Below are positions 26,977 through 64,000 of a stretch of 64,000 nt of DNA, in pieces. Every line of letters starts with the position of its first letter. The first letter of the stretch is position 1. Source of the DNA: Phoronis australis (lineage: Eukaryota; Animalia; Phoronida); the NCBI GenBank assembly GCA_002633005.1, contig NMRA01000080.1, forward strand, positions 35,985 to 99,984. Reading direction: 5' to 3'. Under the pieces are notes generated by a model, which worked only from the letters and a program-made list of their open reading frames with translations, was not told the DNA's origin and did no database searches. Made by a program: the position numbers and the translations under genes.

Positions 26977-27619
26977 ATAATAGTGTACCAAAGAAATAAT
27001 GTGCACGTGATTATTTACGTGAATTAGCCACGAAACTGAAAAACAACTTACTTGTCGGGGGCCTCGAAGTCGGGTTCACCCGCTTCCACAGACCGTCAGG
27101 GCAAAGGTTGTAGGCTACAATAACAATGATTTGAATAATGTATTTGTATTTCTAAATTATGATTCCCCTAACGTGTGACCATACCATATAAAGTTTAGTA
27201 ATTGTTTCACAACAGCTTTCTGTCAGCAAGCACTAAATTAGCATGCGCTCACACGACCTCGGTTCCCGGTCAATTATTTTTATTCATTGCCGGCATCAAA
27301 AGCCGGTAACGCGGCGGTTTATTTATTGCTGGCTTCTCAACATTTGCACTCACGAATACTGCAAAGGCATTACAAATTGTATCTAACGAAGCAGACTTTT
27401 TTTCAATTTTATATACATGTAAGCATTGGCTAGCATGAGAATAATTCATTTTTAAACAGAACGCTGAATACATGGCAACTCGCCCGGCGCCAATCCGACG
27501 AAGACTTCACGGGTCGGATCGTTACACGTTTCACAGGTTATCAGTTCGAACCGTAATACCCTGATAAAGAAATACTAGAGAGGTGCCGTGAATATGCACA
27601 GACAACGGAACGTATGGAT

Positions 27620-27849
27620 AGTTCTTTGGTAAGCCGGAATTCTTCAGAGAAATCAATGTCGATAAAATGGCGGCCACAGACACGGAGATGTTTCACGGCC
27701 TCATACTTGCTATTAACAGCGTACCTTACCTTCTTCACTACCGCGAGCCACTTCCTGAGCATTTCGAGCTCTCGAGGAAGTCGAAAAAACGATATCCCTG
27801 CTTTCTTCGCAGCTTCGTAGTTCGGACAAGCGGGAACGATGCACCGCAA
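27620..27849 (-). pseudogene. THAP-type C2CH zinc-finger fragment, probably transposase-derived
   Basis: CIVPAC...SFFRLP...RKW...LRVCGRHF..DF is the THAP signature. There is no in-frame ATG (TAG at 27879-27877) and the AVPTIF box is decayed. Confidence 0.75.
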
Positions 27850-29289
27850 TGTAGCAACATGACTTAACCATATTCGCTATTTCAACATTCACTCACAATT
27901 TCAACTGAATTTTCAATGAGTAATTAACTTAATTATCACGTTTTAACTTTGCACGTGGGTTTTCATATATCTCGTGTCAACTAGGTCAGAAGGCGCCGGA
28001 GCCAGCGGTAAGTAGACCAACAGTTCATCATTGTATACGCACTACGCGCCGGCGAGAATAATATCAAGAAACCGAGTAAGAAATGGACAATAGACATAAA
28101 GTCACTGGTTAAAGGGCGTCGTGAGCACGAGGTTGAAACAGTAAAATTTCAAATTTCCGGTCAAAATAATGAATGTCGATTATGATTTAACTTTTTTTTA
28201 TCAGCTTAACAGCTATGTTTGTGAACACTAAGTCGTAGAGGCAGTTCGGCGACTCGGACTTGGTGCATTCGTTCTCAACGGTCGTGTATGTGTGCAGACG
28301 CACAACTCCCTCCGGATAAAAAAATACTTTTTATCATTGTTTTACCCGGCATCTTTCTATGATATGTACACTTCCTTGACTCAATTTTATGTCGACTCGG
28401 TGAATGAAAGGACTGAAGGTATTTACGGAACTGCTCTGTGCCTGTCGCCGGGAGATTTGATTTAAGCGACAGCCTTGCAACCTTTGAACTCGGATAGGTA
28501 GTGAACAAATTTCCACGCTGTTGAAGGTGGTTGTACTACATCTTTTTGTCGCTATACGTTATGTGTTTCGCGTTTGAAGTTCCCCGAGAATGAAGATAAG
28601 ATATTTTTCTACACATACATGTACATTAAAAATATTGTAAAAACGGCCAATTTTGTGAATAAGATTTGAGATATCGTTAACGTCTATGCCATCGGATTTA
28701 TCGCCGGAGGTCAGTGCCTGCGTTTGACAACAGCGCTGATCGAGGCAGGGACTGGTTAATGTTCGTTAATATTTTGTTATATTTACTATTTTGACAGTAT
28801 GAGCAAGCGGTTTCAATTTATCCTTTTTTGCTGTATGATCTACATTAAAAATTACTGAACGTATGGTGTACGCAAAACGAGTTCCTGCCATACCGCCTTT
28901 GCTCGGATCACATGTTACCGGTAGCCTATTCAAGAGTCCAATATGTCATCTTCTAGTACATCGTCATCGCTACAACGTAGCAACCGTTGGCGGCTTAGCG
29001 ATGTTGACGTTGGGGGAGAGGCATAGGTTCTTGCCATTGTTGATAAGTACAAAAACTCTGTATGATCGAAGGTCATATTAGCACCGCCTTGCGATACGTT
29101 ATACTAGTTTCCTGTGAAAGCTACTTTGTTGTTAAGATGTATACACATGTCTTGACTATTAGTACATGTAAGTAAGTAAGTAATTTTTATTATAGTGACA
29201 TGTGCTGTTACAGACGAACCAAAACAATAAATACGTAACCGAACACCCAGCACACCACTGGGCTTATACATTTAAGTCACTTTAGACAC

Positions 29290-35540: not shown

Positions 35541-35552
35541 TTTCTTTTTTAG
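35541..35552 (+). promoter_or_regulatory. 3' splice acceptor (polypyrimidine tract + AG) 2 nt upstream of the NRPS ATG
   Basis: tttcttttttAG|gtATG at 35541-35557. Confidence 0.7.
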
Positions 35553-35554
35553 GT

Positions 35555-38500
35555 ATGACCAGCAATGAAACAACAAGTTCTGAAGACACTACTGATGGCG
35601 GTGAAGACGACAACCATGCATTCTTCAGAATCAGCCAAAAACATTGCTCAGCAATATCTGACATTGTCTCACCTGCTGGCTACAGCACAATAGAAGCGTT
35701 GGTATGTATTGCGTATGCTGTGCTCATCCGTTATGAAGGCGCCGACAAACCCCCCTCCATTGTCTTGGCGTTCGCTAGTCCACTGCAGGATCAACAAGAA
35801 ACTGACACCTTTTTTCAGAATTACGACGAAAATACTCCTGATGGCGAATACTCAACAGCTCTATTTCCTTGTGATGTCAGTGGTCATATTTTGAACCTGC
35901 TTTTGTCTCAGCGTCTTGAGCTTGAAAAATGGCCTGAAGCGCTTTCTAATTTTAGGCGCAGCAGCCCAAACGTACACATGGCGTTCGATCTTCCGCGCGA
36001 GTTTAGTCGACGTAGACAAAGTAAGCAGTTTGCATTAAAGATCGGCATGGTCCTTCAAATAAATGGCGACTATGCATGTTCAGTGCGTCAAAGCACAAAC
36101 TGCTGTAACAAACACGTGACGAGATTTCAAGATCATTTTCTATCGCTAGTTGCAAAAGTAAACAGCTCTGAAAATCTTAATCTATTCAGCATCCCCATTC
36201 AAACCCAGAAAGAGAAGAAGCTAATCGCTGAGTACAACGCAACCGATAAATTTTATGAAAAGGGCGACTGGCTTATGCATGAGCTTTTTGAAGAAAAAGT
36301 AAGACAACTTCCCGACGCAGTTGCTGTTTCTTGTGCTGATCAAATACTAACATACAGAGAACTAGATGAGCAATCGACCAGGCTAAGTGTCAAAATACTG
36401 TCCAACATGGGAAGTGGATGTTCAAGTCGCTTGGTTGGTATAAGTGTTGATGCATCAATAGACATGGTGATAGCTTTATACGCCATCATGAAAGCTGGTT
36501 TTGCCTACGTACCGCTTGATCCAAGCTACCCAGAAGACAGGCTGAGTTACATGATTGAAAACTCTAACGTTAGTCTTATACTTGCCAAGAAATCAATTTC
36601 TGGCATACTGAGAAATTTTTGCAAAAATGTGCTTTGCCTTGAAGACGTATTGGTAGAATCTGCCAAAGAAAAAGAACTTCAAAAACACATTGTCAACCCT
36701 GATGACATGGCTTACGTAATATACACATCTGGCTCTACTGGTAGGCCAAAAGGTGTTATGGTGAGTCACCGAAACGCAGTTAACACTCTTCTGGACATTA
36801 ACGAAAGATACTCTGTTACTAAAAAAGACAAAATACTTTTGGTTGCGTCACTCAGTTTTGATCTATCGGTTTATGACATCTTTGGCGTCTTAGCTGCAGG
36901 GGGAACAGTTGTCATTCCAGTTCCGGAAGTGCGTGGAGTTCCAGATCCCAGCTGTTGGATCGAAACTATGAAAAAGCATAATGTGACAATCTGGGACTCG
37001 GCACCAGCGGTCTTAAGTCTCCTAATGGAATTTATTCTTTCCGAAGACGAAACACTTCCTCTTTCCTTGCGATTATGTATACTAAGTGGTGACAGAATAC
37101 CACTAAACCTCCCCACCCAGTTGGTAGAGATGGTTCCTGGAATTCAAGTAATGAGTCAGGGAGGTGCCACTGAGGGTTCAATATGGTCTATTTATTATCC
37201 AATACAAACCGTTGACGATGATTGGACGACTATCCCGTACGGCATGCCACTTTCCAACCAAAGGTACTACGTTTTGGATGAATTCCTTAATCCTGTATCA
37301 CCTTTAGTAGTAGGAGAATTGTTTATTGGGGGGATAGGTGTTGCCATGGGATACATAAACAATGCTAAAATCACCGACTATCGATTCTTGCCAAGTCCTT
37401 TTATCAAAGGAGAGCGAATCTATAAAACTGGTGATCTAGGCAGACTGCATCCAGCCGGATACATTGAATTTTGTGGAAGACTTGACACTCAAGTTAAAAT
37501 ACGTGGTTTTCGAGTTGAGCTGTCTGAAATTGAATCAGCTTTGATTAGCCAAGAAGGTGTTGCTGATGCGTTGGTCATGAAGGTCAAGGAAAAACTTGTC
37601 GCTTACGTCATTCCTGACCCAAATGTTCGTTTAATCGAAACCGACCTACAACAGAAAATTGCTGTTCAACTTCCATCATATATGGTTCCAGCGTTTGTTG
37701 TATTCATGCATTCATTCCCCGTAACTGCTAATGGGAAAGTGGACCGCCGAGCGCTGTCTGAGGTAGACTTTGGTAAAAAAATCAACGACAATACAGACTC
37801 TCCTCTGCTTGAAAAGAGCTCAGGAACGAAAATAGCATCGTTTACAGAAAGGGAATCTCTTCTTGCTGAAACATGGAGCAAAACATTTAATGTAACGTTA
37901 GAAGAACTTTCACCTTCGTCATCTTTCTTTGAAATTGGCGGTGATTCCATTTCTGCTATGACTGTAGTCGCTGAGGTTCGGAAGAAAGGTTTTAGGATAT
38001 CGGTGCAGCAGGTTTTGGGTAACCCTAGGCTTTGTCAACTTGCCATGATAGCAAAACCAGTCCGGAGTGTTCAAAATGGTGAGGTGCAACATAACTTAAC
38101 ACCGTTTGTCCAACTTACTCCAGCCCAGATTTGGTTCTTTGCACAAGAGTTCAAAAACCCACATTTCTGGAACCAGTCGTTCCTTCTTCAACCAAAGAAA
38201 CAAATTGAAGCATCCCAGCTGACTTCAGCCTTAACCAAACTGATTAGACAGCATGAAATGTTGAGGTGTACGTACACTCAAACATCTGAAGGTAAATGGA
38301 TACAGAAAATAAACGACACAAAGACGCCATTTCTCAGAACCAAAACATTAGAGAACTTGGACATGCTAAACGAAGAATTAGACAAGTTAAAATCGTCTCT
38401 TAATATACACGAAGGCCCTTTATTGGCAGCTGGTCTATTTAATGTCGGCAATGTGCAAAGAATCTTTTTAACAGTTCATCATCTGGTTGTTGACCTTGTT

Positions 38501-41500
38501 TCATGGCGTATCGTCCTCGAAGACCTTGAAAAAATGTATGAAGGACACCAGACTGAAATGCCAAGCATGTCATTTCAAAAATGGTCTTTACGCTTACGAC
38601 AAATGGCCGAGCCCATTATGCGTGATGCATGGCCGAAAGAAACTGAAGCCATGCCTTTACTGATAGATTCTGGAAGTAATTTAATTCCAACATCTAGCTA
38701 CAGAAAGGCAATTATTTCTGAGCTTGATCACAGCGTAACCGCTGCTTTGGTATCCACTGCAAATTCTTCATTCAAAACTAATACTGCAGACATTTTGCTT
38801 GCGTCTCTAATTCTTGCATACAACGAATCGTTTGGGTTAAAGGATCTGCAAATTGACGTTGAAGCTCATGGTCGAGAGCCGGGGTGTGACACAGATGACA
38901 TTTCAAGAACTGTTGGTTGGTTCATGACAATGTTTCCGCTGAAGTTAGAAATCTGCCAGGGTTCTTCACGCGACACCACCATGGAAAACACGCTAAAATT
39001 GGTAAAAGAAAAATTAAGAAATATACCGAATCGCGGGATGCCATTTTGGCTTTTGAAGTTTTTGAAGAACTCCGATGAGACAAAAGTTCAAAAATCAGAC
39101 GTACTTTTCAATTACTATGGTCGATTCGATCAAATTCAAACCAAAAGTGCTTTGTGGGACCTTGCCGACGAGTATCCTTGTGGTGAGGATGAATTCAGTG
39201 CAGAAGAAAAGCTAACACATAAAGTGGTTGTTGAATGTAGTCTGAAAGAAGAAAAACTCCACATGAAGATGTTTTACTGCACTGATATCCACCGAAAGAC
39301 GACTATAGAATCATGGATGGCGAAATGGAAAGAGAGTTTAACAAATCTTGTGTTACACTGCATAAGAGATGACGTCTTTGGATATACACCGTCAGACTTT
39401 CCGTTACTGAAACTTTCACAGCACCATTTAGATGAGCTATTGTCAACAAGACTTGCACAATTGGACCTTGAAGCTGAACACGTTTCCGACATGTATCCGT
39501 GCACGCCCATGCAAGAAGGCTTTTTATTTAGTCTTTTGAAAGATACTGCTGCTTATGTGATACAGAGGTCATGTACTATCAACGGCTCAGTCGACCAGCA
39601 CAAGCTACAAGTGAGCGTTTATAAAGTGATTTTAAGACACGACATTTTGCGAACACGCTTTATTGCGGACAGATTAAATGGCTGCATGCAGATAGTACGG
39701 AAAACTTTCCAACCCCAGTGGACAATTGAGGACTGGTCTGATCTTGAAGAAAACGAACGTTCTAAAAAAGAGATGGAATTCTTACAACATGATCGCTGTT
39801 CAGGTTTTAATTTCTCAGAGCCAATGCTAAGGTTTGCGCTGTTCAGGAATTCCAAAGAAACGTACCGCTTCATTATTTCCTCTCACCATAGTTTAGTGGA
39901 CGGCCAAACGAGTTCATTGATTCTTCAGGAATTAATACTGGCCTACAATGACGCCGTACTGCCGGACTCACCCTCATTTAAAGAATACGTCAGAGAAATG
40001 ATTGATTATAACACGACTTGCTACAAAGCTGAAGGTTTTTGGAGAGAAGAAATGTATCAACTACCTGACCGTGGCAACCTTCGTTTCTTGCCCCCAGAAA
40101 GTCCACAAACGGGGTATGCTGTTATTCACCACTCAACAATGTACGGAAAGGTGGGAGAAATTCAGAAGTATGCAGAGCAGCATGAGGTTTCAGTTGCTAC
40201 CATAATCTGTGCTTCTTGGGCTTACGTAATCAACAAATATTCTTGTGATCCAAACGACGTCATTTTTGGTTTTGTCGTGTCTGGACGTGGGACCTCTCAT
40301 ATTGAAAATATTAACAGATTAGTCGGTGTAACCACAAACACTTTGCCATTCAGAGTGAAGATTCACGACCAACACGTTCCCGAGTGGCTACACTACATCC
40401 ACGGAAAGTTAACAGCTATTCTTGAACAAGAAAAGTCGTCCATGTCAGATATACAAAAATTGTGTGGATTAACTCCAAACGACATACTTTTCGAAACTCT
40501 TGTATCTTACAATACAAGGAACAGAGAAATGGAGTCTTCCTTAAAATCAGCATCTTTCGATGTCTGCGATATCTATGATCATGAATTCACGGAATACCCT
40601 CTCGCACTAGACATTCTCAACAATGGTAATGCTATTGAAATCAAAGCAGTGTACGACAAAGATATTTTGGATGAGTCAGCAGTTGTGCAGATACTCAAAC
40701 AACTAGAAAGAGCCATGTGGTGGATAGCAACAGCGTCAAACGAAACTCGCATAAGCGAGTTTGACATTGTGAGTCCTGAAGAACATAACGTATTGAAAAA
40801 CTTCAATCCAGTCGATAACTATGATCGACAACTGGGGCACTTCAAAGGAGTGCATCAAGTATTTGAAACGATGGTGGAACGCTGTCCCAAAGAGCATAAG
40901 GCATTGATCATGGACGATGCGTCATTAACCTACAGAGAACTCAACTCAACTGCCAACGCTTTAGGTTTACGACTCCGATCTCTTGGCATTTCACGTGACG
41001 AGAAGGTTGGACTTCTCATTGATCGAGGAATAACTATGGTCATCGGAATGCTGGGAATCTGGAAAGCTGGGGGTGCCTTTGTTCCTATTGATGCTGCCCA
41101 GCCGTTGGACCGCCTGCAGTTCATATTGGAGGATTGTGGCTGCCAAATTGTCTTAAACTGCAGCTCCATCGACATAAACTTAGTACCACAGAAACATACG
41201 CATATTAGTTTAAATAGCCATACGCTTGCTACGTACAAAAATCAGAGTGTTTGTAATCTGGAATGTGTCAATGAAGCACGAGACCTTTCGTATATGGTTT
41301 ATACTTCGGGTACAACTGGGCGACCAAAAGGCGCCATGGTTGAACATCGTGGCATAATTAATAGCTTGATGTATAAGTCTGGGGGGCTTCTTGATGTGAC
41401 CCTTCAAACTAAAGTTATGCAGAACTATGCCGTCGGATTCGACGCTGCGGTCTTGGAAGTGTGGACAACACTTTGTCATGGCGGGTGCCTTTTTATTCCT

Positions 41501-44500
41501 TCTGGCGATTTTACGAAGATGATGAAAATAGTCGATGCTGTTGGGAACACACCGTCTACTCTTGCTATTCTCGACCCCATTGATTATTCTAATTTGAATC
41601 TTGTTCTTGTGGCTGGTGAACCGTGTTCGTCAGCAATGGTGAAAGTCTGGGGCAAAAGTGTAGTTCTAGTAAATGGCTACGGACCGACAGAATGCAGCGT
41701 AATGTCTCACAATAGTCGACTGTTGCCAGATAAACGAGTTTCAGTTGGCAAGCCTGTGCCAAATACCAAAAGCTACATTCTAGACGGCTATCAGCGTCCT
41801 GTTCCACCTAATATGACAGGTGAGCTTTATTTAGGCGGAGTTAACGTTGGACGAGGTTACCATAACAGACCGGATTTGACAGAAAACGCCTTTTTGGAAA
41901 ACCCCTTTGATACTGGACGAATGTATAAAACTGGTGACTTGGCAAGATGGTTGGAAAACGGGGAAGTCCAAATCATTGGGCGAATTGATCATCAAATCAA
42001 AATACGAGGCAAACGTGTAGAACTCGAAGAAATCAGGTCTGCTATTGAATGTCTTCCGGGTGTAACACAAGCACACGTCCTTGTTCAAGACAAACATTAC
42101 ATCGTTGCGTATGTCATGACTTCTGCTTCACTGAATCAATCCAATCTTCTTTCATATTTAAAGAAGAAACTTCCAGGTTTTATGGTACCGACGGCAATAT
42201 TTTTCATGGAAAATTTTCCACTTACAGCAAACAAAAAGATTGACCAAAAATCTTTACCAAAATTTGAGCCCCAAACAACGCATTATAAGGGTGCAACTCC
42301 GTCTAATAATTTTGAAAAAATGATTCTCAACGGTTATAGAGAGGTTGTTGACCCAGGTTTTAACATGGAGGATGATTTCTTTGACTTTGGAGGGCACTCC
42401 CTTTCAGCAATACGACTAAAATCGCTGCTTGCAGAAAATACAGGAATAGACATTTCCATGGTCGATGTTATGCAATTCACCACGCCGGCTGACCTCTCCG
42501 CAGAACTAAGCAACAGAATGCTGTTTCCAAAAAAGAAGCAACAAACGGCATTCATCATTCCAAAAACTTGTCCAATCGACGCTGAGAAGATAATTACGGC
42601 CAAAGCATCCTGTCGACAAGAACAAATGTGTTTATTGTATGAACTAATTCCAAGTAGTCCAGTGTACAATGTTACTGTTATCCTCGCATGTCATGGATTA
42701 CTAAAAGTGGATATTCTGACAAAAGCTCTTAGACAGATAACGACAATGCATGCTTCGTTCCGCACCTCGTTTACGAGGTCTGCTGACAATTCTTTTTATC
42801 AAACAATAACACCCGAAAAAGACTACGATCTAGACTTCAGCTACTTTGACTACGCAGGACAATCGGATAGTAGTCAACAGAAAGCACGTGAACTGCTGTA
42901 TAAAGAAGCTGCAAAACCGTTCGATCTTTATTCTATTCCACTGGCCAGGTTTGTACTGGTCAAACTATCAAAGGAAGTTCATCATTTGGGAATATTTATG
43001 CACCACGCCGTCACTGACGGAGCCTCAATTAAGATAATTATTGAACAGTTGGGTGAATGCTATTCTTCGTTACTGAATAATTATCAGTTAAATATTCCGC
43101 CACAAAGATTAAACTACATCGATTACAGCAATTGGGAGAGGAAGCTACTAGATGGTGGCGAAATGGAGAGACAACTAGAGTTTTGGAAAAACAATTTAGA
43201 CAATGTAGCCACTATTATGGATTTGCCGCGAGATCGTTCACGCCCCGCCATTCCATCGTATCGAGGCGCAACGGTCTTCTTTGATATTCCAGAACTTGTT
43301 TCAGAAAAATTGATGAAAACTGCCCTTGAATGTGGGGCAACACTTTTCACATCTCTGGTATCTACGTTTGCATTACTCATTCGAGTGTATTGTCAAGCTG
43401 ACGACGTAGTTGTGGGTGCCTTCTTCTCTGGAAGGCACAACCCCGGTGTTGAAAGTCTAGTAGGTTACTTCGTGAACACTCTTCCTGTAAGAGTTCAGTT
43501 CGAGGAAAATACCACATTCAAAACCCTTTTGAAATATGTGAGGAATTTGATGCTTGACGTTCTTGATAACCAGGATGTTCCATTTCAGAAGATCCTAGAA
43601 TGCTTGAATGTGCCACGTGATACTTCTTATCACCCCATCATTCAAGCAGCAACTGTTCTTCAAGAAGGTTTTGCAAACATGCACTTTGACGATGGACTTT
43701 CTATCGACGTTCAGACCTTCGAGCAATTCACTGCAAAGTTTGACTTGAACTTGGAGTTTGTGAGACAAGAGAGTGGAAAGTTGAGTGGCCATTTCGTATA
43801 CAACACTGATATATTCAACCGTTCTACCATACAAAGAATGAGCCACAATTTGTTACACTTGTTTGAAGTGCTAACAACAAACCAAGACGCGCCTTTTAGC
43901 TCTTTAGACTTGCTACCACCATGTCAATCAGCCCTTATTAAGTCGTTTAACAGGACGGGAGATTTTTGCAAGCTTCGCATGCACCAGCAATTTGAACAAC
44001 AAGCAGAGCTTGTACCAGACAGTATTGCAGTTGAAGAAATTGACAGGCACATAACGTACAGAAGCTTAAACGCAGCTTGTAACAAATTGGCACGGAAATT
44101 GCGTTCTTTTGGGATCGTTCCAGACGCCGTCGTCGGCGCTGTATGTGAGAGAAATTTAGAATTCGTTGCCTCTGTCTTAGGAATTATGAAATCTGGCGGC
44201 GCTTTTCTTTCAATTGAAGCGACTCTTCCGAAAAGTCGTATCGATTTGATGCTCGAGGACGCCGGTTGTAAAGTCATTGTTACCACAAGCAAAGTTAAAT
44301 CAACAGGGGTTCTCGATTCCTTTCTGGGGGAAATTGTGCTGGTTGATTTAGAAAAGTACACTACACGCTATGAAAATGATGCATTTGATGATAATGACTA
44401 CGCCAATTTGGAAAACGTTTCCGATTCAAGACATCTGGCATATATTGTATACACGTCAGGAACAACAGGAAAACCGAAAGGGATTATGATTAATCATTGG

Positions 44501-47500
44501 GGCTGTGAGTGTGTGGTTGCTCGATCATGTAAAGAGTACGGTATCACACATGGAACAAGAGTAACACAATTTTTCCACATAATGTTTGATATAGCTTATC
44601 AAGAGATGCTAATGACTTTAACCAGTGGAGCGACACTGGTCCAGCGAGAAAAGAACTTCCTTAATACTTTGAAGAAAGTTGACGTAGCGTTGATGTCGCC
44701 ATCTGTTCTGGCTTCTCTGGAACCTAGTGATTTTCCAAATATTAAAACGGTTGCTGTTGTTGGCGAAATACTCCCAGAGTCTGTAGTCAATAAGTGGGAG
44801 AAACACGTAGAGCTCTACAATGAATATGGTCCGTCAGAAATAACGATTGTTTGTACTTGGGGGTTGACAAATGGAAACCCCCAAGTTACTGTTGGAAAAC
44901 CTATTACCAACTGTTCAGTGCACATTTTAGATAACAACTTAAGGCCAGTCCCTATCGGAGTGAAAGGTACAATGTACCTTGGAGGAACTGGGGTTGCTAG
45001 AGGATATGTAAAGCGGCCGGAATTGACACAACAGAAATTCATCAATAACCCCTTTGGCGAGGGAAAACTTTATAATTCGGGTGATTTAGGTTCTTGGACT
45101 GAAAATGGAGAAATTATAGTAGCAGGTCGCAAAGATAGGCAAGTTAAATTAAGAGCTTTCCGTGTAGAACTCGATGAAGTCGAGCATGTTATGAGGATGC
45201 AGGATGGAATTTCAAACGCAGCATCTGTAGTGAAAAATGACGTTCTTGTGGGATACGTAACACCAGACATAGGAAGTGCTGGTGTTTTTCAACTGAAGAA
45301 AAATCTACAAGACACACTCCCTCTCTATATGGTTCCATCAGTGATAGTTCCTTTATCAGAATTTCCTATGTCAAGTTCAGAAAAAATTGACTACAAAAAC
45401 TTGCCTGAACCCAATGTTGGTGACATCGAGATATTGACTAAAAAAGAAGAAATTTTGATCCAAATATGGAGTGAAATTCTACAAATCGATCCATCAAAAA
45501 TCAAAGTAAGTGACTCATTTTTTTTCCTGGGTGGTGATTCTATTTCTGCCATGAGGGTATTTTCTGAGGGAAAAAAGCGCAGACTTCGTTTCACAGTACA
45601 ACAAGTATTCCAGTCCAGAAGTTTGTCTCAACTTGCACACTTGGCAAAGTTTGTCAGTGAAAAGAAATCTGCCATGAAGGACAACAACAAGGAGATATCG
45701 GGCAATGTGCCCTTCACCCCTATTCAAGAATGGTTTCTCCACTTAAACCTTCGTAACCGCAATTGCTTCAACCAGTCGCTACTGCTCAGACCATTGCTAA
45801 ACATGAACCCAACAATCCTCCAAAATGCCATTCATGAACTTATCTCCCATCACGATATTTTGCGAGCTTCCTTCACTTTTAAAGAAGGTGGGAATGCGAC
45901 TCAGGAAATCCAACCATGTGACAAAGCTCTAACACCAAAGTTGATTCACAAGAAAATTGATGAAGACCGACTGGATGGTGAACTGGGAAAACTTCAGAAT
46001 TCTTTGGATTTAAAATCTGGTCCGCTTCTGGCTATTGGTCTATTTGATATTGTTGGCCAGCGGCAGTATCTGTTCATAACTATCCATCACTTGGTTGTGG
46101 ACCTTGTTTCTTGGCAAACCATCCTGGAAGATCTCGAAACATTATGTCGCGGAAACTCCCTGCAACCAAAAACTTCTTCATTCAAAGAATGGTCAGAGCT
46201 TCTGATTTCCGAATATTCTCCTAGCCTCAATGCAGATGATTGGCCAGAATTGGAACAAAGCAGTCCCTTAAAATTTGACTTTTCGAAAAACATGGAAAGC
46301 ATCGAAAGCGAAAGTCGTATGCTTGAATCAATAGAGCTAGACAAAAATACAACAAGCAAATTACTTAGTCTTAGAGGGACTCAAGGATTCGACAGCACTT
46401 CGATGAACGACGTTCTTTTGACTGCTCTAATTGTGGCTTACTATGAGAGAACTGGTGAAACATCATTGACTGTCGATCAAGAATGGCACGGGAGAGCACC
46501 TTGGACTGACAAAATCGATCTTTCTCGAACTGTCGGTTGGTTCACTGCTATGTTTCCTGTTACACTGGCTTTGAAAAAAGGCACAGATAACCTACTGGAA
46601 CACCTTGAAGAAATAAAGCGACGAATCAAAAGAATTCCTAATAACGGTATGCCGTACGGGGTTATGAGGTACTTGAAAAAGGACAACGATCCAAGGTTTT
46701 ACCAACACAGTGACGTTGTTTTCAATTACCACGGGAGTGCCACGATGTTTTCTAAAGAGAATAGCTTGTGGGATGTTTGCAAAAACGGTGACTACACTTA
46801 CAACAATCAGTGTAAATACGAAAAGATCACTCACATGTTGGCTATTGAGTGTTATATTTCTGATGGATGCCTTCACGCCTTCTTCGTTTTTAGCAAAGAC
46901 CTTCATAAGCCTAAAACCATTCAGTTATTGGCACAATCGTGGAAGAAAGCAACAGAGAACATCGTGGAGTCACTTCAGCTATGTTGCACAATTTCTGATA
47001 TGCCTTCGAAAACTGATGAAAACAAAGTGAAGACAATGGAAAATGCATTGAAAGCAGCGCATATCAGTTTGGACGACGTGGAAGATATTTATGCGTGTAC
47101 ACCTCTACAAGAAGGATTAATATTCTCTCTACTTCAAAACAAGTCGTCCTATTTAGTGCAGTTATGTTTAAACATAACAGGAAGGCTTGATGTTGAAAGA
47201 TTCAAACATGCCTGGAGTATCGTTATTAAACGTCACACAGCTTTGCGAACGAGCTTTATTATTGATTCCGGAAGCCATTCTTTGATTCAAATAGTAAGAC
47301 GCCAGTCTGATCCTCAATGGGAAGTGGGATCCTGGATTGAATCTGAAGAAACGGAGAGTGGTTTTGTAAACTTAGACAGGGCGAAGGGATTCAGTGCAAA
47401 CGGAATTCTAATTAGATTTGCTCTACTGAAAACAAGCGAGTGCAGCCACAAGTTTATTTGGACCTTCCATCATTCGGTTGTTGACGGATGGTCTTCTCCG

Positions 47501-50500
47501 CTCGTCCTCAGAGACGTTTTGAAAGTTTATCATGCTCACGATCTTCCACCCGCCCCTTCATTTCGTCTGTTTGTGGAAAATTGCAAATCTCGTGACATGT
47601 CCGCTGCAAAAACTTTCTGGTCACAGTACTTGTCAAATCTGAAACCAAAGCGTATCTTGACTTTGTCGACAATTCAAGAATCCTCTGAATGTGGCAAAAA
47701 GCAGGTGTTGCGCACATTTTCTACAAAGTTGGAAGATCTGAAACAATTTGCAAGGGAAAACAGTTTAACGACGACCTCTGTTATGTATGGCGCATGGGCA
47801 TTAGTTTTGGATCGGTATTGCAGTAGCCCCAGGAAAGACGTAGTCGTGGCCGTTGTCGTCGCATCGCGAAGTGCTGACATTGAAGGAGTCGAAGACGTAG
47901 TTGGTCTACTGCTCAACACCTTGCCACTTCGCATAACTTTGCCTTCTGACGAAAGAGTCACTTTTACAGATTGGCTAAAGACCATCCACGAGAATCAAGC
48001 CGCAATAATGGCTTATGATTATAGCAATTTAGCTGACATACGAAAATGGAGCGGTCTTCCAAGAGATCAGAATCTGCTTGATACTCTGGTTACATACGAA
48101 AATTATCCAGCGTTTGAAAACCTGAAAGACCAAGAAATCGATTTTTTTGACATCCATGGATACGAAGACATTGGTTTGCCTTTGGGAATGCTTTTCGGTG
48201 ACGACGGCGAATATCTCATGGCTAAGTTCATGTACGACGCAAATAGCGTTAGCGATCAATTAGCCCTCCAGATGTTGACTCACTTGAACAACCTTTTAGA
48301 TGAGATACTCCTTTCTGATAGCTCAAAACCAGTCATTCATGCCGAGATTGACATTAAATATGCTAGTGTCGCAAGTCCAGTAATTGACGACGTGACATAT
48401 TCGCTCTGCATTAAGGATCAACACAACCGATATTGTCCAAACGGCGTTATTGGGAAGTTGTATATACAAATGAATAAGGGTAATTACGTGATTTACACTG
48501 GTGTTCTTGCAGCATCACAAATAAACGGTGACATAACAGTCGTTTTGGATAACGAAGTCAACTCAATACCACAGGAACTGGACGGGATTGACGGGTTGCG
48601 AGGCTGTTTTATTTCTAAAACTAATGAAGGTGTATTTGCCTTCATTACTTCCGACTATACCATGCCCCCAGCGACATTGAAGGATATCAAATCGATACTT
48701 GGAAGGACACATGCACCATTATGTGTTCTACCAGTTGGCTTCACCGTTGTCAGTAAAAACGTTCTTAAAGAGATAACCGAAATACCGTCCGAGGTCGGAC
48801 AAACGGAATCCAAACAATCGTGGCAAGGTTACAGTGACGTCATGGAAATGTTGACAGACAAGGAATTGATTCTTCGCGACATGTGGGCAAAACTCCTGAA
48901 AATGGACTCAAGCGACATAAAACTTGACCACTCTTACTTTGATCTCGGTGGCACTTCAATATCAGCTATCAGTTTAGTATCTATGGCTGAAAAAAGCGGG
49001 CTACAATTTAGCCTGTCAGATGTAGTGCAGCTTGAAACACTTGCAGAAATAGCCGCAGTTGCCGAGTTAAAGGCGGACGAGGGCGACATGTTGGTTTGTT
49101 TAAGCAGCGGCGATACCGGCAAAAAACCTGTCATCTACATTCACGCCAGTGACGGTGGGGTATCGTCATTTTCTTACGTTGTTGGTAAGTATAGTATTCT
49201 ATAGGAAGTGCACTTTTCAACGACATTTAACGGGAAAGCCATTGGTTTAGTTAATCTTACTGAACTTTAATCTGTAATTCGTTTTGTTCAGTAAAATGAA
49301 ACATGGCGGTAACGCTTGCTCCGACACCACATTAATGTTGAATAGGCTTAGCTTTTCATGTAATTGTCAGGTGAGCAATGTATAGTACGCTATATATGTT
49401 GAGGTAACTGATGACGATATAATGCTGCTGCCTCAAAACTAGCATGCGAATTCAAGCATCTTCTCACGCGATCTAAATACATGAACAACTGGTATTTCAA
49501 GAGGTTGGCTATTTGCAATTCAAAACTGCTGTGTTTGCGGACGTGTTATACGCATCGAACACCAAGGAGCTTCATGATATATGACCCTGTTCCAACGAAT
49601 ACTTCCTGTAGAACGGTTAAAGCTTGTCACATATAGTTGATGTTCTTAATTTCACTATAAAATGCTGCACTAAGGTGCCAAAAGTTTGTTACGCCCTACT
49701 TAAAAGTTCAATTTCATGATTTGATTGGCGATCGCCGAAATTTATCGAAATGCTCTTGAACACAAATTCGTACTCCCTTTGTACACCAACTCGTATCTGT
49801 GCCTCTGTATTTGAGATATGTTATACGGGAACTGGGGACGTATGTGTGAATTTTTAATGTATTTACATGTTTTATAGGCTCTCTGAAGACGCACCCGGTG
49901 TATGCCTTCCGTTTTCTGCTTGGTAGTACACCATTCGAGTCAATTCCTCAACTTGCCTCGCTGTATGTAGAGCGAATGAAGCAGTTAGACTTCTTTTACA
50001 AGGACACTCCGTATGTTCTAGTTGGGTATTCGTCAGGCGGGGCTATAGCTTTTGAAATTGCGCTGCAGCTTCAACAGATTGACCGGAGACCGGAAACTCT
50101 AGTTATTCTTGATGGAAGTCCAGATTTAATCACAAAATCGTACACGAGAATGTTGAAGAGCTCCGAAAAGCAGATGGGGACTTATGAGAAATGGCTTCAA
50201 GACACATGGAATGAAAAAGGTCTGAACGAAGACGATTTGAAGGTTGGACTGTCGCTCTTTCGAGAAACTCTGAATATTTACGCCTCCTACGTTCCTTCCA
50301 CCATTTACGACGGAGACGTCAAACTGGTACGTGCAACTGATATACTAACAGAAGGACCGCTATCTGAAACTCTTGCTGAGCTTCAAAAACAAGAGCGCGA
50401 CTATGGCACCCAACGTTTGTGCTCTAAACCAGTGCGAGTTGTTGACGTTGATGGCGACCATTACACCATGATGAGAGACGAAAAACAGATTATAGCGAAG

Positions 50501-50515
50501 ACTGTTGTCGAATAG
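35555..50515 (+). CDS. Multimodular NRPS, two coding exons join(35555..49184,49878..50515), ~4755 aa; [half-C]-A-T-E-C-A-T-C-A-T-E-C-[A remnant]-T-TE
   Basis: Uninterrupted 4549-codon ORF with three A3 P-loops (YVIYTSGSTGRPKG, YMVYTSGTTGRPKG, YIVYTSGTTGKPKG), four carrier motifs (GGDS, GGHS, GGDS, GGTS), two E motifs (HHLVVDLVSW) and three C motifs (HHSLVDG, HHAVTDG, HHSVVDG). It splices in frame to the 49898..50515 ORF carrying GYSSG...LDG...GDH. Confidence 0.95.
35615..36200 (+). other. NRPS N-terminal region: degenerate C-terminal half of a condensation/cyclization-type domain
   Basis: FFRIS...YSTIEALVCIAYAVLIRYEG...SIVLAFASP and ...VTRFQDHFLSLV resemble the second lobe of a C domain. No HHxxxDG or DxxxxD motif is present. 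Confidence 0.5.
36272..37770 (+). other. Adenylation domain A1, cysteine-type clade; by-eye pocket code DLYDISQIWK
   Basis: SLSFDLSVYDIFG, VTIWDSAPA, LRLCILSGDRIP, SQGGATEGSIWS, YKTGDLG, TANGKVDR. The GGATE..IWS A5 variant is typical of Cys-activating domains (consensus code DLYNLSLIWK). Confidence 0.85.
37850..39410 (+). other. T1 (GGDS, Ser codon 37946-37948) followed by epimerization domain E1
   Basis: FFEIGGDSISAM; LTPAQIWFF, HHLVVDLVSW, EAHGRE, SRTVGWF, RNIPNRG, FNYYGRFD, YTPSDFPL. Confidence 0.9.
39485..42520 (+). other. Module 2: C2 (DCL-type) - A2 (by-eye code DALGLAGVMK) - T2 (GGHS)
   Basis: MYPCTPMQEG, HHSLVDG, VSGRG; FDAAVLE, NGYGPTE, YKTGDLA, TANKKID; FFDFGGHSL. Confidence 0.9.
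42600..46985 (+). other. Module 3: C3 (LCL-type) - A3 (by-eye code DIQLAVEIVK) - T3 (GGDS) - E2
   Basis: MHHAVTDG, DLPRDRSRP, VGYFVNTLPVR, QDVPF, AKFDL; FDIAYQE, NEYGPSE, YNSGDLG, SSEKID; FFFLGGDSISAM; FTPIQEWF, HHLVVDLVSW, EWHGR, SRTVGWF, KRIPNNG, FNYHG. Confidence 0.9.
47075..49075 (+). other. Module 4: C4 (DCL-type) - truncated A remnant - T4 (GGTS)
   Basis: YACTPLQEG, FHHSVVDGWS, VGLLLNTLPLR, YENYP. The remnant IKDQHNRYCPNGVIGKLYI..IYTGVL..NGDI matches only decayed A6/A7 motifs. T4 reads YFDLGGTSIS. Confidence 0.8.
49088..50515 (+). other. Terminal type I thioesterase domain split by the intron
   Basis: Exon 1 ends with KPVIYIHASDGGVSSF. Exon 2 has PYVLVGYSSGGAIAFEIA (Ser), LVILDG (Asp) and GDHYTMM (His). 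Confidence 0.9.
49185..49877 (+). other. Spliceosomal GT-AG intron, phase 1, 693 bp, inside the TE domain
   Basis: Donor G|GTAAGT at 49184/49185 and acceptor tgttttatAG|GC at 49877/49878. Joining gives G+GC=Gly and reads ...SFSYVV-G-SLKTHPVYAFRF..., in frame with the downstream ORF. Confidence 0.9.
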
Positions 50516-50682
50516 TCCGTGTAAAAAGCTATATTTCTGTTCCACTGGAACCGCTGTTGCTGTTAGGTACATAAAAATTCACAAGGGAGCCCTATATATA
50601 ATTATATATATTCATCTGAGAAACGAACTGTTAAACCATGTTGCGTAAGAATGTTTAGCACGGACATGATTTCGCGCTTTTG

Positions 50683-52653
50683 CGTAGTGGAATCTCTATT
50701 TAGAACTGTGTTATGGTCGTTGTTAAGGACATTTGGTGAAATTACGAGTTACACCTATTAGTTGGGGCGATGAGACTCATTAAATAAGTACACTGTATTT
50801 AAGCCAGTCAGTTTGGTGGCAATGGAATACAACCAATTAGGGAGACTGGTGAGTAGAGACATAGTCTAGCTTACATGCATACTGTTTCTGAACAAGTCCG
50901 CGAACATCGCGCTGACAATGACGAATTAGTATCAGCGTAGGCGTAGATCAACCTAACACATCACATCTCTTACACTATGTACCAAGTAGAGTCTATGGAA
51001 ACAGCCCGTACCCAAAGACGAGTGTAAAATTTCGATTTTAATTTCCATTATCAATGAACATAATAGGAGACGTTACCATGCAACGTCCCTAAGTCGAGGA
51101 CACAGTCTATATTTATTTCCATTGACGCAGGAGCATAATTTTGGGATATATTATCAGAAAAATGTACGTAAAAGAGGACAGCATGATGAAGATGAAATGA
51201 TTAAAAACTAACGTTAGTAAAACCCTCAAAAAGCTGAAGATTGGGAACGTAGTGTAATCTCTATTTAGAACTGTGTTGTTGTCGTTGTTAGGGATTTTTG
51301 GGGAAATAATGAGTTACAAAAATTAGTGGTGGCGATGATACTCAATAATAAGTACACTGTATTTAAGCCAGTGAGTTTGGTGGCATTGAAATAGAACCAA
51401 TTAGGGAAACTAGTGAGTAGAGATATAGTCTAGCTTATATGCATACTGAATCTGAACAAGTCCGCGAACATCGCACTGACAATGACGAATTAGTATCACC
51501 GTAGGCGTAGATCAACCTAACACATCACATCTCTTACACTATGTACCAATCAGAGTCTATGGAAACAGCCCGTACCTAAAGACGAGTGTAAAATTCCGAT
51601 TTTAATTTCTATTATCAATGAACTTAATAAGAGACGTTACCATGCAACGTACCTAAGTCAAGGACACAGTCTCTGTTTATGTCCATTGACGCAGCAGCTT
51701 AATTTTGGGATATATTATCAGAAAAATGTACGTAAAAGAGGACATCATGATGAAGATGAAATGATTAAAAACTAACGTTAGTAAATCCTACAAAAAAGCA
51801 GAAGATTGGGAACGTAGTGGAATCTATTTAGAACTGTGTTATTGTCGTTGTTAGGGATTTTTGGGGAAATTATGAGTTACACATATTAGTGGTGGCGATG
51901 AGACTCACTAAATAAGTACACTGTATTTAAGCCAGTCAGTTTGGTGACATTGAAATAGAACCAATTAGGGAAACTAGTGAGTAGGAACATAGCCTAACGT
52001 ACATGCATACTGTTTCTGAACAAGTCAGCGAACTTCACGCTGACAATGACGAATTTGTATCAGCGTAGGCTTAGATCAACCTAACACATCACATCTGTTA
52101 CACTATACCAACTAGGGTTTATTAGGGCCTTTCATACTAACGTCGACGCGTCGATGGTTTGGGGAGTTGCGGTCAGTATGAACGCTTAACTCCGGTCCTG
52201 GATCGCAGTTAAGAGCTCCAGTTAACATCGCAGTTAATAGGTGGATTTAAGACCGCAGCGTCGACGCTGCGGTGCAGTATGAACGCTTAACTCCGGTCCA
52301 ATCGAAGTTATCGCCAGGTGCCACTGTTATCGTCAACAGTTACAGAGTAGTGCCGTCACTAATAACTACTTATTGTTTGCTTTAATGACAACCAATCGAT
52401 TTAAAAATGTGTTTACTGTCATTTAGCACATTTAAATGTTCCAAATTGTCACATTGAAAAAAATCTTAGCGTGCAGCGCTACCTTGCGATAACTTCGATG
52501 ACGTCAGCGTCACCAACCCTTTTCTTCGATGGTCATTAACTACCGAAGCCAGTATGAACGGTCCAGTTAACTGCGCTGTTTACGTCGACGCTCCGCTCAG
52601 ACCGGAGTTAAGTCAATATGAAAGGGCCTATTGAAACAGCCAGTACCTAAAGA
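50683..52653. repeat. Tandem repeat, ~565-bp unit x ~2.6, directly 3' of the NRPS stop
   Basis: cgtagtg.aatc..tatttagaactgtg starts at 50683, 51248 and 51813. The third unit is interrupted by a MITE and resumes with gaaacagccagtacctaaaga at ~52633. Confidence 0.92.
52124..52629. mobile_element. 506-bp PIF/Harbinger-like MITE, ATT TSD
   Basis: att|AGGGCCTTTCATA...TATGAAAGGGCCT|att, with internal repeats cagtatgaacgcttaactccggtcc. Confidence 0.75.
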
Positions 52654-62539: not shown

Positions 62540-63480
62540 CTATTGGCAGCTGTTGTTACTGGTTCTCAATCTGTAAGTAGAAATGATCTGTCTGCAGGTG
62601 TTGTGTTCTGTGAGAGCCAGACTAGGGCGTCTTCATATGCTTCACATTCAGCTCTAAAAGACGAGGATTTTCCAACCCGTGCTGTTGGCCATTCAAAGAG
62701 GCGTTGACCCTCGTGAGTCCAAGCAACTGCTGCCCAAGCCGTAGTGTCATCTCTTAGTGAGCCGCCCGTTGCAACAATGATTGTGGGAGATTGTTCTTCA
62801 AGTCATTCCAATACAGTTGCTTGGTTGATATAGTCAGCTGTTTCCCGCCAATGACAGCCTCCAAATGACGGCCTCCAAATGACGGCCTCCAATCTCCATG
62901 GTGTTGATGACAAAGTTTGTGGCTTTGGACCACTCTATGCTGTTGATGTTCTCCATTGGACATACCTCTTCGACAAGCTCCCTAGCTCCGATAACCCATG
63001 ATTGAACAGTTTTCAGCCTCTGTGCAGTGTGCTCATCACTATGCTCTCTCAAGTCCAGGTACAGAGGATGAGAGTTGGTTGTAGCTGCCTTTAGAAATGC
63101 TTGGGCTGCTAGTGTCTTGTGTTTAGTACAGATGCTATTGATACCTAACCAGTATTGGAGACTGTCTACTGGAGTGGGTCTAGGTGCACTGGTTACTATC
63201 CTCATGGCGTGGTTTTGAATTCTCTGTAGTTTGGTCGTTGACTGTTGGGAGGCACATAGGCACAGATGGAGCCCATACTCAGATCTTGCGCTGACAGTTG
63301 CATTCATGAGCTGAACCAGGCTCTTTTGTTTGATCTGCTGGGCTGCTGCATATCTCAACACTGACAGGCTCTTGGCACCTTTCTCAGCCAGGAATTCTAC
63401 ATGGGATTTCATCGTCATTGTTTGATCCATCTTAAGTATCAGTCCATGGATCCACCGACCACTGTACAGCCAACAAGCGG
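62540..63480 (-). mobile_element. LINE ORF2 relic with RNase H domain (I-group-like)
   Basis: Post-RT KLQRIQNHAMRIVTSAPRPTPVDSL. After a frameshift it reads TIIVATGGS...SSFRAECEAYEDAL...FLLTD*, the RNase H TDGS / AE / TDS pattern. Confidence 0.8.
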
Positions 63481-64000
63481 CAAGGTGGGGGGTCAGCCAT
63501 TCAGATCCTTGTTTAGTCTGATAAATCACATTAGGGATGAGAGAAATTGGGTGAAGTATGACACCACAAAGTTTGGTGGTTTAGGAGATACAAGGGAAGT
63601 GTTCTGGGGGGCAGAATGAGGCAATTTCTTGGTGTGGAATGAGTCCTTTTTGACCAAATTTTCTACTCCGGTTTCTGCTTCGAACAGAATCACTTCTGAA
63701 CAATTTTGATAATACATGATAGGTTCATGACCAATGTCAGCAAAAACGGCACCGACACTGCAATATCGGTTACCATGGTAACACTGGAACTGTTTCCGGG
63801 GAGGTACATTTCCTTCTTGTGAAAAACCAGCAGTAAGTTGTACCCTTATAGCGAAGCTGCCCCCGCGAGAAAACTAAAAATAATAACATGGACATGTAGA
63901 AGACTCCATGCCCTTGAAATTAAAACAATAAAAACTTTGTCAGCCCTTCAGGCAGGTTTGGTAATAGGTGTCTGAATTTCACTATTTTCAGACCGCGTAT

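Follow-up and report, generated by a model that had tools for sequence, protein, structure and literature searches.

The 64,000-nucleotide stretch of contig NMRA01000080.1 analysed here, in the following called the window, carries on its + strand an intron-containing gene for a nonribosomal peptide synthetase (NRPS), a protein built of adenylation (A), carrier (T), condensation (C), epimerisation (E) and thioesterase (TE) domains. A stop-free frame at 35519-49204 (+), 4,561 codons from stop to stop in the standard code, contains the larger part of the gene, and a second open frame at 49850-50515 (+), 221 codons long, encodes the remaining part of the thioesterase; all other open frames in the six frames of the whole window have at most 248 codons. 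With the first ATG at 35555 and an intron of 693 nt at 49185-49877 (GT-AG, phase 1; donor GTAAGT, acceptor TTTTATAG ending at 49877), the spliced coding sequence (CDS) 35555-50515 encodes 4,755 aa with zero internal stops. A preliminary description of the window had placed the gene at exactly these coordinates and had reported an intact long exon with a canonical intron, and on both points we agree with it. The parts of the transcription unit are as follows (the sequencing runs X1 to X8 are described below).

35555..49184, +: coding exon 1, from the first ATG to the splice donor, 4,543 codons + 1 base; covered by RNA in X6 and X7, with DNA contigs over its 5' boundary
49185..49877, +: intron, GTAAGT...TTTTATAG; skipped by 11 RNA reads and present in DNA contigs
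49878..50515, +: coding exon 2, remainder of the thioesterase, stop at 50513-50515; RNA depth 11.8 / 13.3 in bin 49775-50425
50516..51076, +: 3' untranslated region, of approximate extent; bin 50426-51076 has RNA depths of 4.1 / 5.7 and the following bin 0; appears to reach into copy 1 of a 564-bp tandem repeat

Within the 3' untranslated region the hexamer ATTAAA lies at ~50779. At the other end of the gene, 35540-35554 holds a pyrimidine run and an AG 2 nt before the start ATG (ttttctttttttag followed by GTATG), a possible cis- or trans-splice acceptor of a 5' leader in a stretch of low read depth.

Domain organisation of the synthetase

Domains were mapped by Pfam (whole protein and 18 overlapping pieces of 500 residues), by NCBIfam (8 pieces) and by a motif scan, and follow in the order (C-tail leader)-A1-T1-E1-C2-A2-T2-C3-A3-T3-E2-C5-(spacer)-T4-TE. 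In the list below, P0032 denotes the closest relative found in the databases, and the specificity positions of the A domains were obtained by alignment.

35555..36286, +: leader, residues 1-244; from about residue 153 the apparent tail of a condensation domain and C-A linker, lacking HHxxxDG
36287..37759, +: A1 adenylation domain, residues 245-735; specificity positions DLYDISQIWK
37847..38056, +: T1 carrier, residues 765-834; GGDSI, Ser 799
38105..39421, +: E1 epimerisation domain, residues 851-1289; TIGR01720 at 114.5 bits (cut-off 74.2); within the E clade
39476..40795, +: C2 condensation domain, residues 1308-1747; HHSLVDG; after-E type; sister of C2 of P0032 (support 99)
40862..42259, +: A2 adenylation domain, residues 1770-2235; specificity positions DALGLAGVMK
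42314..42529, +: T2 carrier, residues 2254-2325; GGHSL
42599..43939, +: C3 condensation domain, residues 2349-2795; HHAVTDG; after-T type; sister of C3 of P0032 (support 98)
43991..45406, +: A3 adenylation domain, residues 2813-3284; specificity positions DIQLAVEIVK
45440..45664, +: T3 carrier, residues 3296-3370; GGDSI
45692..47059, +: E2 epimerisation domain, residues 3380-3835; within the E clade, sister of E2 of P0032; TIGR01720 at 71.1 bits, slightly below the cut-off of 74.2
47072..48334, +: C5 condensation domain, residues 3840-4260; HHSVVDG; after-E type
48335..48856, +: spacer, residues 4261-4434; 174 residues at the place expected for the A domain of module 4
48857..49081, +: T4 carrier, residues 4435-4509; GGTSI
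49112..50512, +: thioesterase, residues 4520-4755, split by the intron; GYSSG; PF00975 at E 1.9e-19

The core motifs A3 (YTSGxTGxPKG), A7 (YxxGD), A8 (GRxDxQVKxRGxRxE) and A10 (its lysine) are kept in all three adenylation domains, the GGxS serine in four of four carriers, HHxxxD in five of five C-type domains and GYSSG in the thioesterase. Pfam AMP-binding is matched at E 6.8e-215, TIGR01733 at 344-399 bits for the three A domains (cut-off 317) and PF00975 at 71.2 bits (cut-off 26.4); the Asp of the thioesterase triad at +27 and a GDH near the end were read from the translation, at a spacing that we take to be the usual one. As a rule GGDSI marks a carrier that serves an E domain and GGHSL one that serves a C domain; T1 and T3 (GGDSI) and T2 (GGHSL) are in line with this.

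The C-type domains were classified in a FastTree of 203 such domains, which comprises all domains of the four focus proteins (the NRPS described here and its relatives P0032, P0004 and P0031, see below) and random samples from the fetched matches (80 after-T, 60 after-E and 15 starter C domains and 25 E domains). E1 and E2 both lie inside a single E group (34 of 34 E rows, support 100), C2 and C5 belong to a group of 77 rows with support 96, in which 69 rows are C domains located after an E domain, and C3 is placed among the after-T rows; the label 'after-E' is taken from domain context, not from biochemistry.

A Pfam run on the spliced protein, as the preliminary description had proposed, together with NCBIfam, motifs and the tree, confirmed the NRPS domains, the two epimerases and a single terminal GxSxG thioesterase, but corrected the number of A domains to three. 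Only three of the four modules that it had counted possess an adenylation domain, and its statement that all catalytic motifs are preserved holds for three A, four T, five C and E domains and the TE, not for a fourth A domain, which is missing, nor for the leader, which has no HHxxxDG. The rule of one A domain per elongation module is not followed in module 4, which consists of C-spacer-T. Judged from its domains, the protein is an assembly line with an A-less module and not a canonical four-module NRPS.

The two ends of this irregularity deserve a closer description. Residues 153-278, at the end of the leader and beyond it, align to positions 376-502 of the Txo1 C-A structure (E 4.5e-8) and NCBIfam models align from about residue 166, whereas the leader as a whole finds no Pfam match even at E 10 and its residues 1-150 match nothing, neither in Pfam at E 10 nor with phmmer in the fetched proteins. 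With phmmer --max, the leader had no significant match in any fetched protein, the leader of P0032 included, and hhalign of the leader (2 sequences) with the C and E domains of the same protein gave a probability of 0.3. Read in this way, the N-terminus appears as a C domain truncated by its catalytic half and not as a free-standing start. No further NRPS-like coding piece was detected in the flanks by tblastn with 8 NRPS queries on the gene-masked window (all E > 2).

In the spacer, residues 4261-4434, neither a Pfam match at E 10 nor A motifs were found. Its comparison with the tails of A2 and A3 of the same protein is weak but collinear (blastp E 0.14 and 0.24); it aligns with TycA 470-601 at E 0.028, matches the AusA model at positions 1837-1991 and has a single phmmer match at E 0.005 in the fetched proteins. 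Probably the spacer is what decay has left of the A6-A10 portion, or last quarter, of an A domain. AlphaFold2 models of leader (single-sequence) and spacer, with predicted local distance difference test scores (pLDDT) of 37.2 and 35.6 respectively, were unusable.

Continuity, transcription and constraint

Genomic reads were available from four runs (X1-X4) of one sample in the form of independently assembled short-read contigs. In all four runs contigs bridge the boundary between flank and gene at 34919-35659/35936: starting at 34919 and extending across the start codon, they measure 741 nt in X2-X4 (0 differences) and 1,018 nt in X1 (12 differences). At the other end, contigs 49138-50074 and 49138-50531 hold the end of exon 1, the intron and exon 2. 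Across the gene, X1 has a summed depth of 59-250 and X2 one of mostly 8-30; in X1 the unique flanks have a similar depth of 57-294 (bins of 294, 59 and 57), while a satellite at 32.5-33.2 kb reaches 90,091 and a repeat at 51.8-52.4 kb 32,302. The NRPS locus is continuous with the host DNA at host copy number, and the comparison of coverage between gene and flanks, which had been proposed as a check, gives matching depth and bridging contigs, here short-read contigs. Many stretches are represented by paired contig versions, with 0 versus 12-29 differences per contig, which indicates two haplotypes 2-3% apart in one sample.

Transcription was assessed in three raw-read RNA runs (X6, X7 and X8) of a separate study, of each of which ~18-19% was read. 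Of the 24 bins spanning 35453-51076, all are covered in X6, 23 in X7 and none in X8; X8 has no gene-bin reads, yet the flanking repeats are covered in it. Nearly all NRPS read pairs have their first mate on the - strand, which in usual stranded libraries signifies + strand RNA. RNA depth increases toward the 3' end, from 0.2-5 to 12-13, drops to 1.2 / 1.3 in the intron bin versus 11.8 / 13.3 in the next bin and is 0 past 51076. The intron is skipped by 8 reads (7 starts) in X6 and 3 reads (2 starts) in X7. Mapping reported this skip as 49185 to 49883 with CCAA in between; since base 49185 is the same as base 49878, it corresponds to the predicted junction of 49184 to 49878. At 49879-49882 the RNA reads CCAA where the reference has CTCT, a length-preserving allelic difference of three adjacent bases at the splice acceptor, by which the first full codon of exon 2 becomes CAA (Gln) instead of TCT (Ser) in both expressing runs. 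The gene is transcribed from the + strand and spliced as predicted, which answers the call for a transcript check made together with the preliminary description.

RNA and reference disagree at many positions (most reads are 95-99% alike), and some alternative alleles are common to the DNA sample and the RNA of the separate study, for example at 38080 and 38093. To estimate selection, 37 and 40 variant CDS sites, those with the best support from the 276 and 351 reported, were combined; with 2 in common, they amount to 75 sites in 72 codons. Of these codons 35 are changed synonymously and 37 non-synonymously, with 0 stops, at an expected non-synonymous share of 0.751 for random change of the CDS (transition:transversion weight of 2). 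For the listed variants this gives an omega of ~0.35 (one-sided binomial p 1.2e-5), which supports purifying selection on the NRPS gene; a ratio near 1, which had been named beforehand as speaking against a working gene, is not what the allelic variants give. A pseudogene is very unlikely. Base composition has no step at the gene borders (gene GC 0.418, GC at third codon positions 0.396, flank GC 0.397 and 0.415).

Relatives and flanking DNA

The databases hold distant relatives of the synthetase. With the whole exon-1 protein as query, 5.8 billion clusters were screened by a word-indexed search; among the best 120 of the 1,395 candidates scored, the top identities were 37% (P0032) and 34% (P0004, from Basidiobolus). 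When the same search was directed at shorter proteins with residues 1-1300, the best 120 of 7,999 scored candidates were cyanobacterial and other bacterial NRPSs with 28-36% identity over at least three-quarters of the query; A1 alone is 41-47% identical to proteins such as one named yersiniabactin NRPS, which is among these best 120. Residues 1-1200 were also run exhaustively with HMMER through 1.84 billion representatives; none of the best 150 matches listed, a list ranked by summed score and therefore filled by long multi-module proteins, exceeds 37% identity, and in the Protein Atlas the N-terminal part of 1,300 aa matched bacterial NRPS clusters alone. Among the matches listed in the three database searches, the closest relative thus has an identity of at most ~38%, and neither Ebony-type or nemamide enzymes, nor aminoadipyl-cysteinyl-valine (ACV) synthetase, nor annotated echinoderm or mollusc NRPSs, nor synthetases of bdelloid rotifers occur by name. 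A HMMER match of similar length, P0293 (4,751 aa), was set aside as it has an unrelated architecture, is 27% identical to P0032 and derives from metagenome contigs.

P0032 is an ENA protein of 4,451 aa, collinear with the NRPS over 4,165 aa at 37% identity, which has a 99%-like sibling, P0123; their contigs measure 2.4 and 3.2 Mb. For the single domains, P0032 ranks first among the matches and P0004 from Basidiobolus second, with P0031 from Tieghemiomyces close after, and all four proteins start with a leader of 200-250 residues followed by A-T-E-C. Trees of E domains and of A-T-E-C units were computed with quick IQ-TREE runs, without bootstraps and with many rows of skewed composition. The E-domain tree contains 54 rows, 9 from the four proteins and 45 that scored best among 195 extracted others, and separates the 9 from the 45 with a Shimodaira-Hasegawa-like approximate likelihood ratio (SH-aLRT) support of 100. 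In the tree of A-T-E-C units (the best 30 of 81 units, 1,511 columns, LG+G4) 8 units are split from 22, again with support 100. Within this group module 1 pairs with module 1 of P0032 (99), that of Basidiobolus being next (99), and module 3 with module 3 of P0032 (99); over this tree and that of the C-type domains, each module pairs with its positional counterpart in P0032 at a support of 98-99.

These trees suggest an old, eukaryote-borne NRPS lineage that is common with zoopagomycete fungi and set apart from the bacteria sampled, and the ancestor which the NRPS and P0032 have in common probably already had the present architecture. An intron position in common with P0032 was considered, the P0032 gene call ending at a similar distance after T4, and dropped. 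The preliminary description had recognised no known system with this architecture; P0032 has the same domain order, while in the open-access literature no description of it in an animal was found. As the nearest relatives are non-animal or lack a taxon label and reach at most ~38% identity, the pattern fits horizontal acquisition, and most likely the gene entered its lineage horizontally and long ago and now has the base composition of the host and an intron. The horizontal origin suggested at the outset is in keeping with nearest named relatives that are fungal and then bacterial.

The flanks contribute to the question of the host. On the two sides of the gene at least 35 kb and 13 kb are without recognisable genes. 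Among 41 flank open reading frames (ORFs) of at least 90 aa, one has a THAP domain above cut-off and one a sub-threshold RVT_1 match (20.3 bits versus 29.6), and the 230 ORFs of 55-89 aa gave zero Pfam matches at E 0.001, so that 269 of the 271 flank ORFs of at least 55 aa match nothing in Pfam. Two relics of mobile elements were recognised.

27541..27876, -: THAP zinc-finger relic of transposase type, upstream of the gene; PF05485 at 46.3 bits (cut-off 23.9)
62834..63580, -: tail of ORF2 of an APE-type retrotransposon without long terminal repeats, 248 codons; 62% identical to P0249 (1,168 aa, RVT_1 and endonuclease)

The gene had been described as surrounded by metazoan-type transposons. One THAP relic and the tail of one APE-type long interspersed nuclear element (LINE) agree with this, although with 269 of 271 flank ORFs unmatched the support is thin. 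A preprint reports THAP domains to be restricted to animals, with none in fungi, plants or bacteria (bioRxiv 10.1101/2021.02.01.429122). The observed/expected CpG ratio of the flanks, ~1.0, is uninformative on the host.

Several repeats were recorded along the window. A satellite at 31722-33038, to which the depth of 90,091 in X1 belongs (versus about 60-290 for unique sequence), consists of 2.9 copies of 452-bp units, is of very high copy number in the genome and shows many variant joints in the DNA runs. Downstream of the gene, 168 nt after its stop codon, a tandem repeat of ~564 bp starts (50683-52210; 2.5-3 copies, 89-94% alike), and an interspersed repeat of ~500 bp at 52124-52629 is deeply covered both in DNA (32,302 in X1) and in each RNA run, X8 included; at both its edges reads run into many sequences (loose-end agreement 0.44-0.97), as for an element like a short interspersed nuclear element (SINE) or a miniature inverted-repeat transposable element (MITE) present in many transcripts. 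A short repeat occurs at 34595-34723 and 26820-26978, the 40-nt core of which (34620-34659) is matched by many RNA reads that run into other sequence on both sides and have the strand opposite to the NRPS reads. Further upstream, 12380-12683 forms a near-perfect hairpin of two 145-nt arms, 99% complementary, with 14 nt between them, maybe a foldback element or an assembly palindrome, and 24463-25682 is an element of ~1.2 kb with inverted repeats of ~100 nt (70-76% complementary), MITE- or DNA-transposon-like, which adjoins the region of the THAP relic and has related inverted copies at 4090-4361 versus 25026-25308. Three fragments of one dispersed repeat recur in the same order and orientation at 896-3449 and 56484-58710, ~55.5 kb apart and flanking the NRPS, with 91-95% identity; a giant mobile element bounded by these direct repeats (0.9-3.4 kb and 56.5-58.7 kb) was considered and dropped in favour of probably two repeat copies, as short fragments of 91-95% identity are typical of dispersed copies. 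Rfam and tRNA scans of the window gave 0 matches each, and the only N of the window is at 57489.

Predicted product, competing readings and known systems

We regard this as likely a working nuclear gene, its host being a eukaryote and probably an animal. The 4,755-residue NRPS that it encodes is predicted to make a short peptide whose residues 1 and 3 are in the D-form, a kind of product that few animals are known to build for themselves. By standard NRPS logic, applied to the order of the domains, A1 would charge T1 with residue 1 and E1 would invert its configuration, whereupon C2, of the after-E type, would join the D-residue 1 to the residue loaded by A2 on T2. C3 would then add the residue loaded by A3 on T3, which E2 would epimerise, C5 would pass the D-ended tripeptide to a residue on T4, and TE would release a tetrapeptide, linear or cyclic; a broad-specificity phosphopantetheinyl transferase of the host may prime the four carrier serines. 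With no working A domain in module 4, the charging of T4 would fall to A1, A2 or A3 or to a trans-acting enzyme. The A-less ending is kept both here and in P0032, which favours loading by an A domain of the protein itself, A3 being adjacent, or in trans, and makes T4 as a dead end less likely. As each of the two E domains is followed by an after-E C domain, a product with D-amino acids is a fair prediction, and to this extent the D-amino-acid peptide proposed in the preliminary description stands, with the A-less module 4 as a point on the other side.

The identity of residue 1 may be approached through A1. Its specificity positions, DLYDISQIWK, differ at three places from DLYNLSLIWK, which is found in A1 of P0032 and of the protein named yersiniabactin NRPS and which we presume to be the code for cysteine, so that residue 1 may be cysteine or something else; A1 of P0004 from Basidiobolus has DLYNFSLIWK. 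That the landmarks of the code follow what we take to be GrsA numbering already belongs to a group of points that weigh against the reading of a functional, animal-encoded synthetase with a predictable product. The A-less module 4 together with the truncated first C domain belongs there too, as the enzyme could be partly disabled or stop at the tripeptide, and it could need partners outside the window. The AG acceptor 2 nt before the ATG makes an upstream exon or trans-splicing possible for the transcript. RNA depth is low (0.2-13 from ~18% of each run) with one of three runs empty, an omega of ~0.35, from 75 listed of 276 and 351 reported sites, stands for moderate constraint, and the variant codons of the leader change the residue in 8 of 12 cases. 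The DNA sample may be the source of the assembly. As to the host and origin, P0032 is presumed eukaryotic from its contig sizes and a truncated gene call, numerous other rows of the trees carry no taxon label, the best named relatives for almost every domain are from Basidiobolus meristosporus (P0004) and Tieghemiomyces parasiticus (P0031), and the Atlas clusters nearest the flank LINE are labelled both Ascomycota and Arthropoda.

The last points lead to the alternative that survives best, namely that the host is not an animal but a fungus (a zoopagomycete with a large genome, for instance) or some other non-animal eukaryote, and the gene an ordinary, vertically inherited NRPS. With zoopagomycete fungi as the named clade-mates this is a live rival: four proteins with the same leader of ~200-250 aa before A-T-E-C form one clade, and one of the Atlas clusters nearest the flank LINE is labelled Ascomycota. 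Against a fungal host stand the THAP relic at 46.3 bits, a domain reported in the above preprint as absent from fungi (bioRxiv 10.1101/2021.02.01.429122), the 693-nt intron with its pyrimidine-rich acceptor, the gene-poor flanks, the two haplotypes 2-3% apart in one DNA sample, expression in two RNA runs and none in one, and modules that are nearer to P0032 than to the fungal proteins (support 99). Overall we consider a non-animal host unlikely, though a serious contender, and the THAP relic, the LINE relics, the long intron, the high heterozygosity and the on/off expression make an animal host likely. In a fungus the gene would be an ordinary finding.

Quite improbable is the second alternative, a transcribed but decaying or neo-functionalised remnant by which nothing is made, or by which a di- or tripeptide is shunted off and released without T4. 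The truncated N-terminal C domain, the module 4 spacer without catalytic A motifs, the relaxed variation of the leader and the low expression could be taken in this sense; 4,755 codons without a stop on either haplotype, none created in the 72 variant codons, the shortage of non-synonymous changes overall (p = 1.2e-5) and the catalytic motifs kept in C5, T4 and TE contradict it, and since the A-less C-T ending is also kept in P0032 at 37% identity, the design is apparently old and maintained. Bacterial or fungal DNA misjoined to host repeats is scarcely credible, for although homologues are overwhelmingly bacterial and contamination often accounts for NRPS matches in animal assemblies (in a survey, 199 of 772 clusters passed the check for it; PMC10531068), the spliceosomal intron present in DNA and removed in RNA, the bridging contigs in four of four runs, the gene depth equal to that of unique flanks and the third-position GC equal to flank GC exclude a recent bacterial import or contaminant, and the alternative alleles common to both studies (38080, 38093) and the lack of any database protein above ~38% identity among the matches listed point the same way.

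Returning to an animal-encoded functional synthetase, a more specific scenario can be offered tentatively, as a possibility that falls short of being probable: the animal expresses and, under selection, maintains a complete assembly line from a lineage otherwise known in zoopagomycete fungi associated with guts and invertebrates, acquired by transfer of the whole gene between fungus-like and animal genomes, followed by gain of the intron and loss of one A domain with its carrier kept, and it would make its own D-amino-acid tetrapeptide, possibly thiol-bearing, by way of an A-less module loaded by the neighbouring A domain. If the host is an animal, the locus would provide a clean and testable animal-encoded pathway to a D-amino-acid peptide without a close homologue (~38% at most) and a concrete instance of an entire synthetase gene, 14 kb long, passing between eukaryotes. 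The A-less terminal module, kept in two distant relatives, is moreover useful for studying carrier loading in cis or trans.

Among known proteins, P0032 is the most similar. It has the order leader-A-T-E-C-A-T-C-A-T-E-C-T, sister modules, the same type of A1 and a last module likewise without an A domain, but instead of the spacer of 174 aa a linker of 41 aa lies between the last C and T, and its gene call ends 41 residues after T4, ahead of any thioesterase. An A-less last module is thus unusual, not unprecedented. ORX93211.1 of Basidiobolus meristosporus (P0004, 6,237 aa) belongs to the same clade, where for most domains it ranks first or second among the matches, at 35-48% identity; it has in common with the NRPS the leader, a Cys-type A1 (DLYNFSLIWK) followed by T-E-C and the abundance of E domains, and differs by five A and three E domains, the lack of a TE in the deposited model and its fungal origin. 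In Tabima et al. 2020 (PMC7466969) it is cited as the candidate of Luo et al. 2020 for the Basidiobolus cyclopentapeptides, a link given as unconfirmed, and many Basidiobolus NRPSs are attributed to transfer from bacteria. The top-scoring named bacterial matches, LgrC of linear gramicidin synthetase (P0003) and ApnA of anabaenopeptin synthesis (P0125), follow the same A-T-E-C logic but are 31-34% identical, stand on the other side of the split with support 100, and have no intron and an A domain in every module.

Closer in host, though not in architecture, are the synthetases of animals. ACV synthetase has the order A-T-C-A-T-C-A-T-E-TE, with specificity for aminoadipate (Aad), Cys and Val. 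Relative to this order, the NRPS has an additional E after module 1 and an extra C-T before TE, and its identification as an ACV synthetase was rejected on the grounds of domain order. The ACV synthetases of springtails and Plectus sambesii do resemble it in having three A domains, E and TE and in being animal-encoded and, according to one survey, thought to be horizontally acquired (PMC10531068). Ebony-type enzymes and those of nemamide synthesis (NRPS-1/PKS-1) are also animal-encoded, carrier-protein-dependent synthetases, and neither has the architecture seen here. The nemamide enzymes are hybrids of polyketide synthase (PKS) and NRPS restricted to nematodes, and an E domain is not known from them or from Ebony-type enzymes. 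Ebony-type enzymes are further described, in the same survey, as being without canonical C domains (PMC10531068).

The NRPS and PKS genes of bdelloid rotifers, compared by description, come nearest in setting. As portrayed in two papers (PMC11258130; PMC10531068), they are multimodular, bacterial- or fungal-like, expressed at a low baseline, intron-bearing and located among transposable elements; unlike the present gene, they are mostly PKS-NRPS hybrids, subtelomeric and situated in gene-dense, AT-rich genomes (PMC11258130). In Suring et al. 2023 (PMC10531068), NRPS clusters are reported from 7 of 19 animal phyla, 199 of 772 clusters having passed the contamination check; survey matches, echinoderm and mollusc cases among them, often lie on short scaffolds for which contamination cannot be excluded. 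In Nowell et al. 2024 (PMC11258130) multimodular NRPSs, with canonical C, E and TE domains, are called 'very rare in animals'. The gene described here probably joins this rare class of animal-encoded, horizontally acquired NRPSs, and it does so with evidence that is usually lacking for animal NRPSs: continuity with the flanks, a spliced intron, stranded RNA from an independent study, two haplotypes and a deficit of non-synonymous changes.

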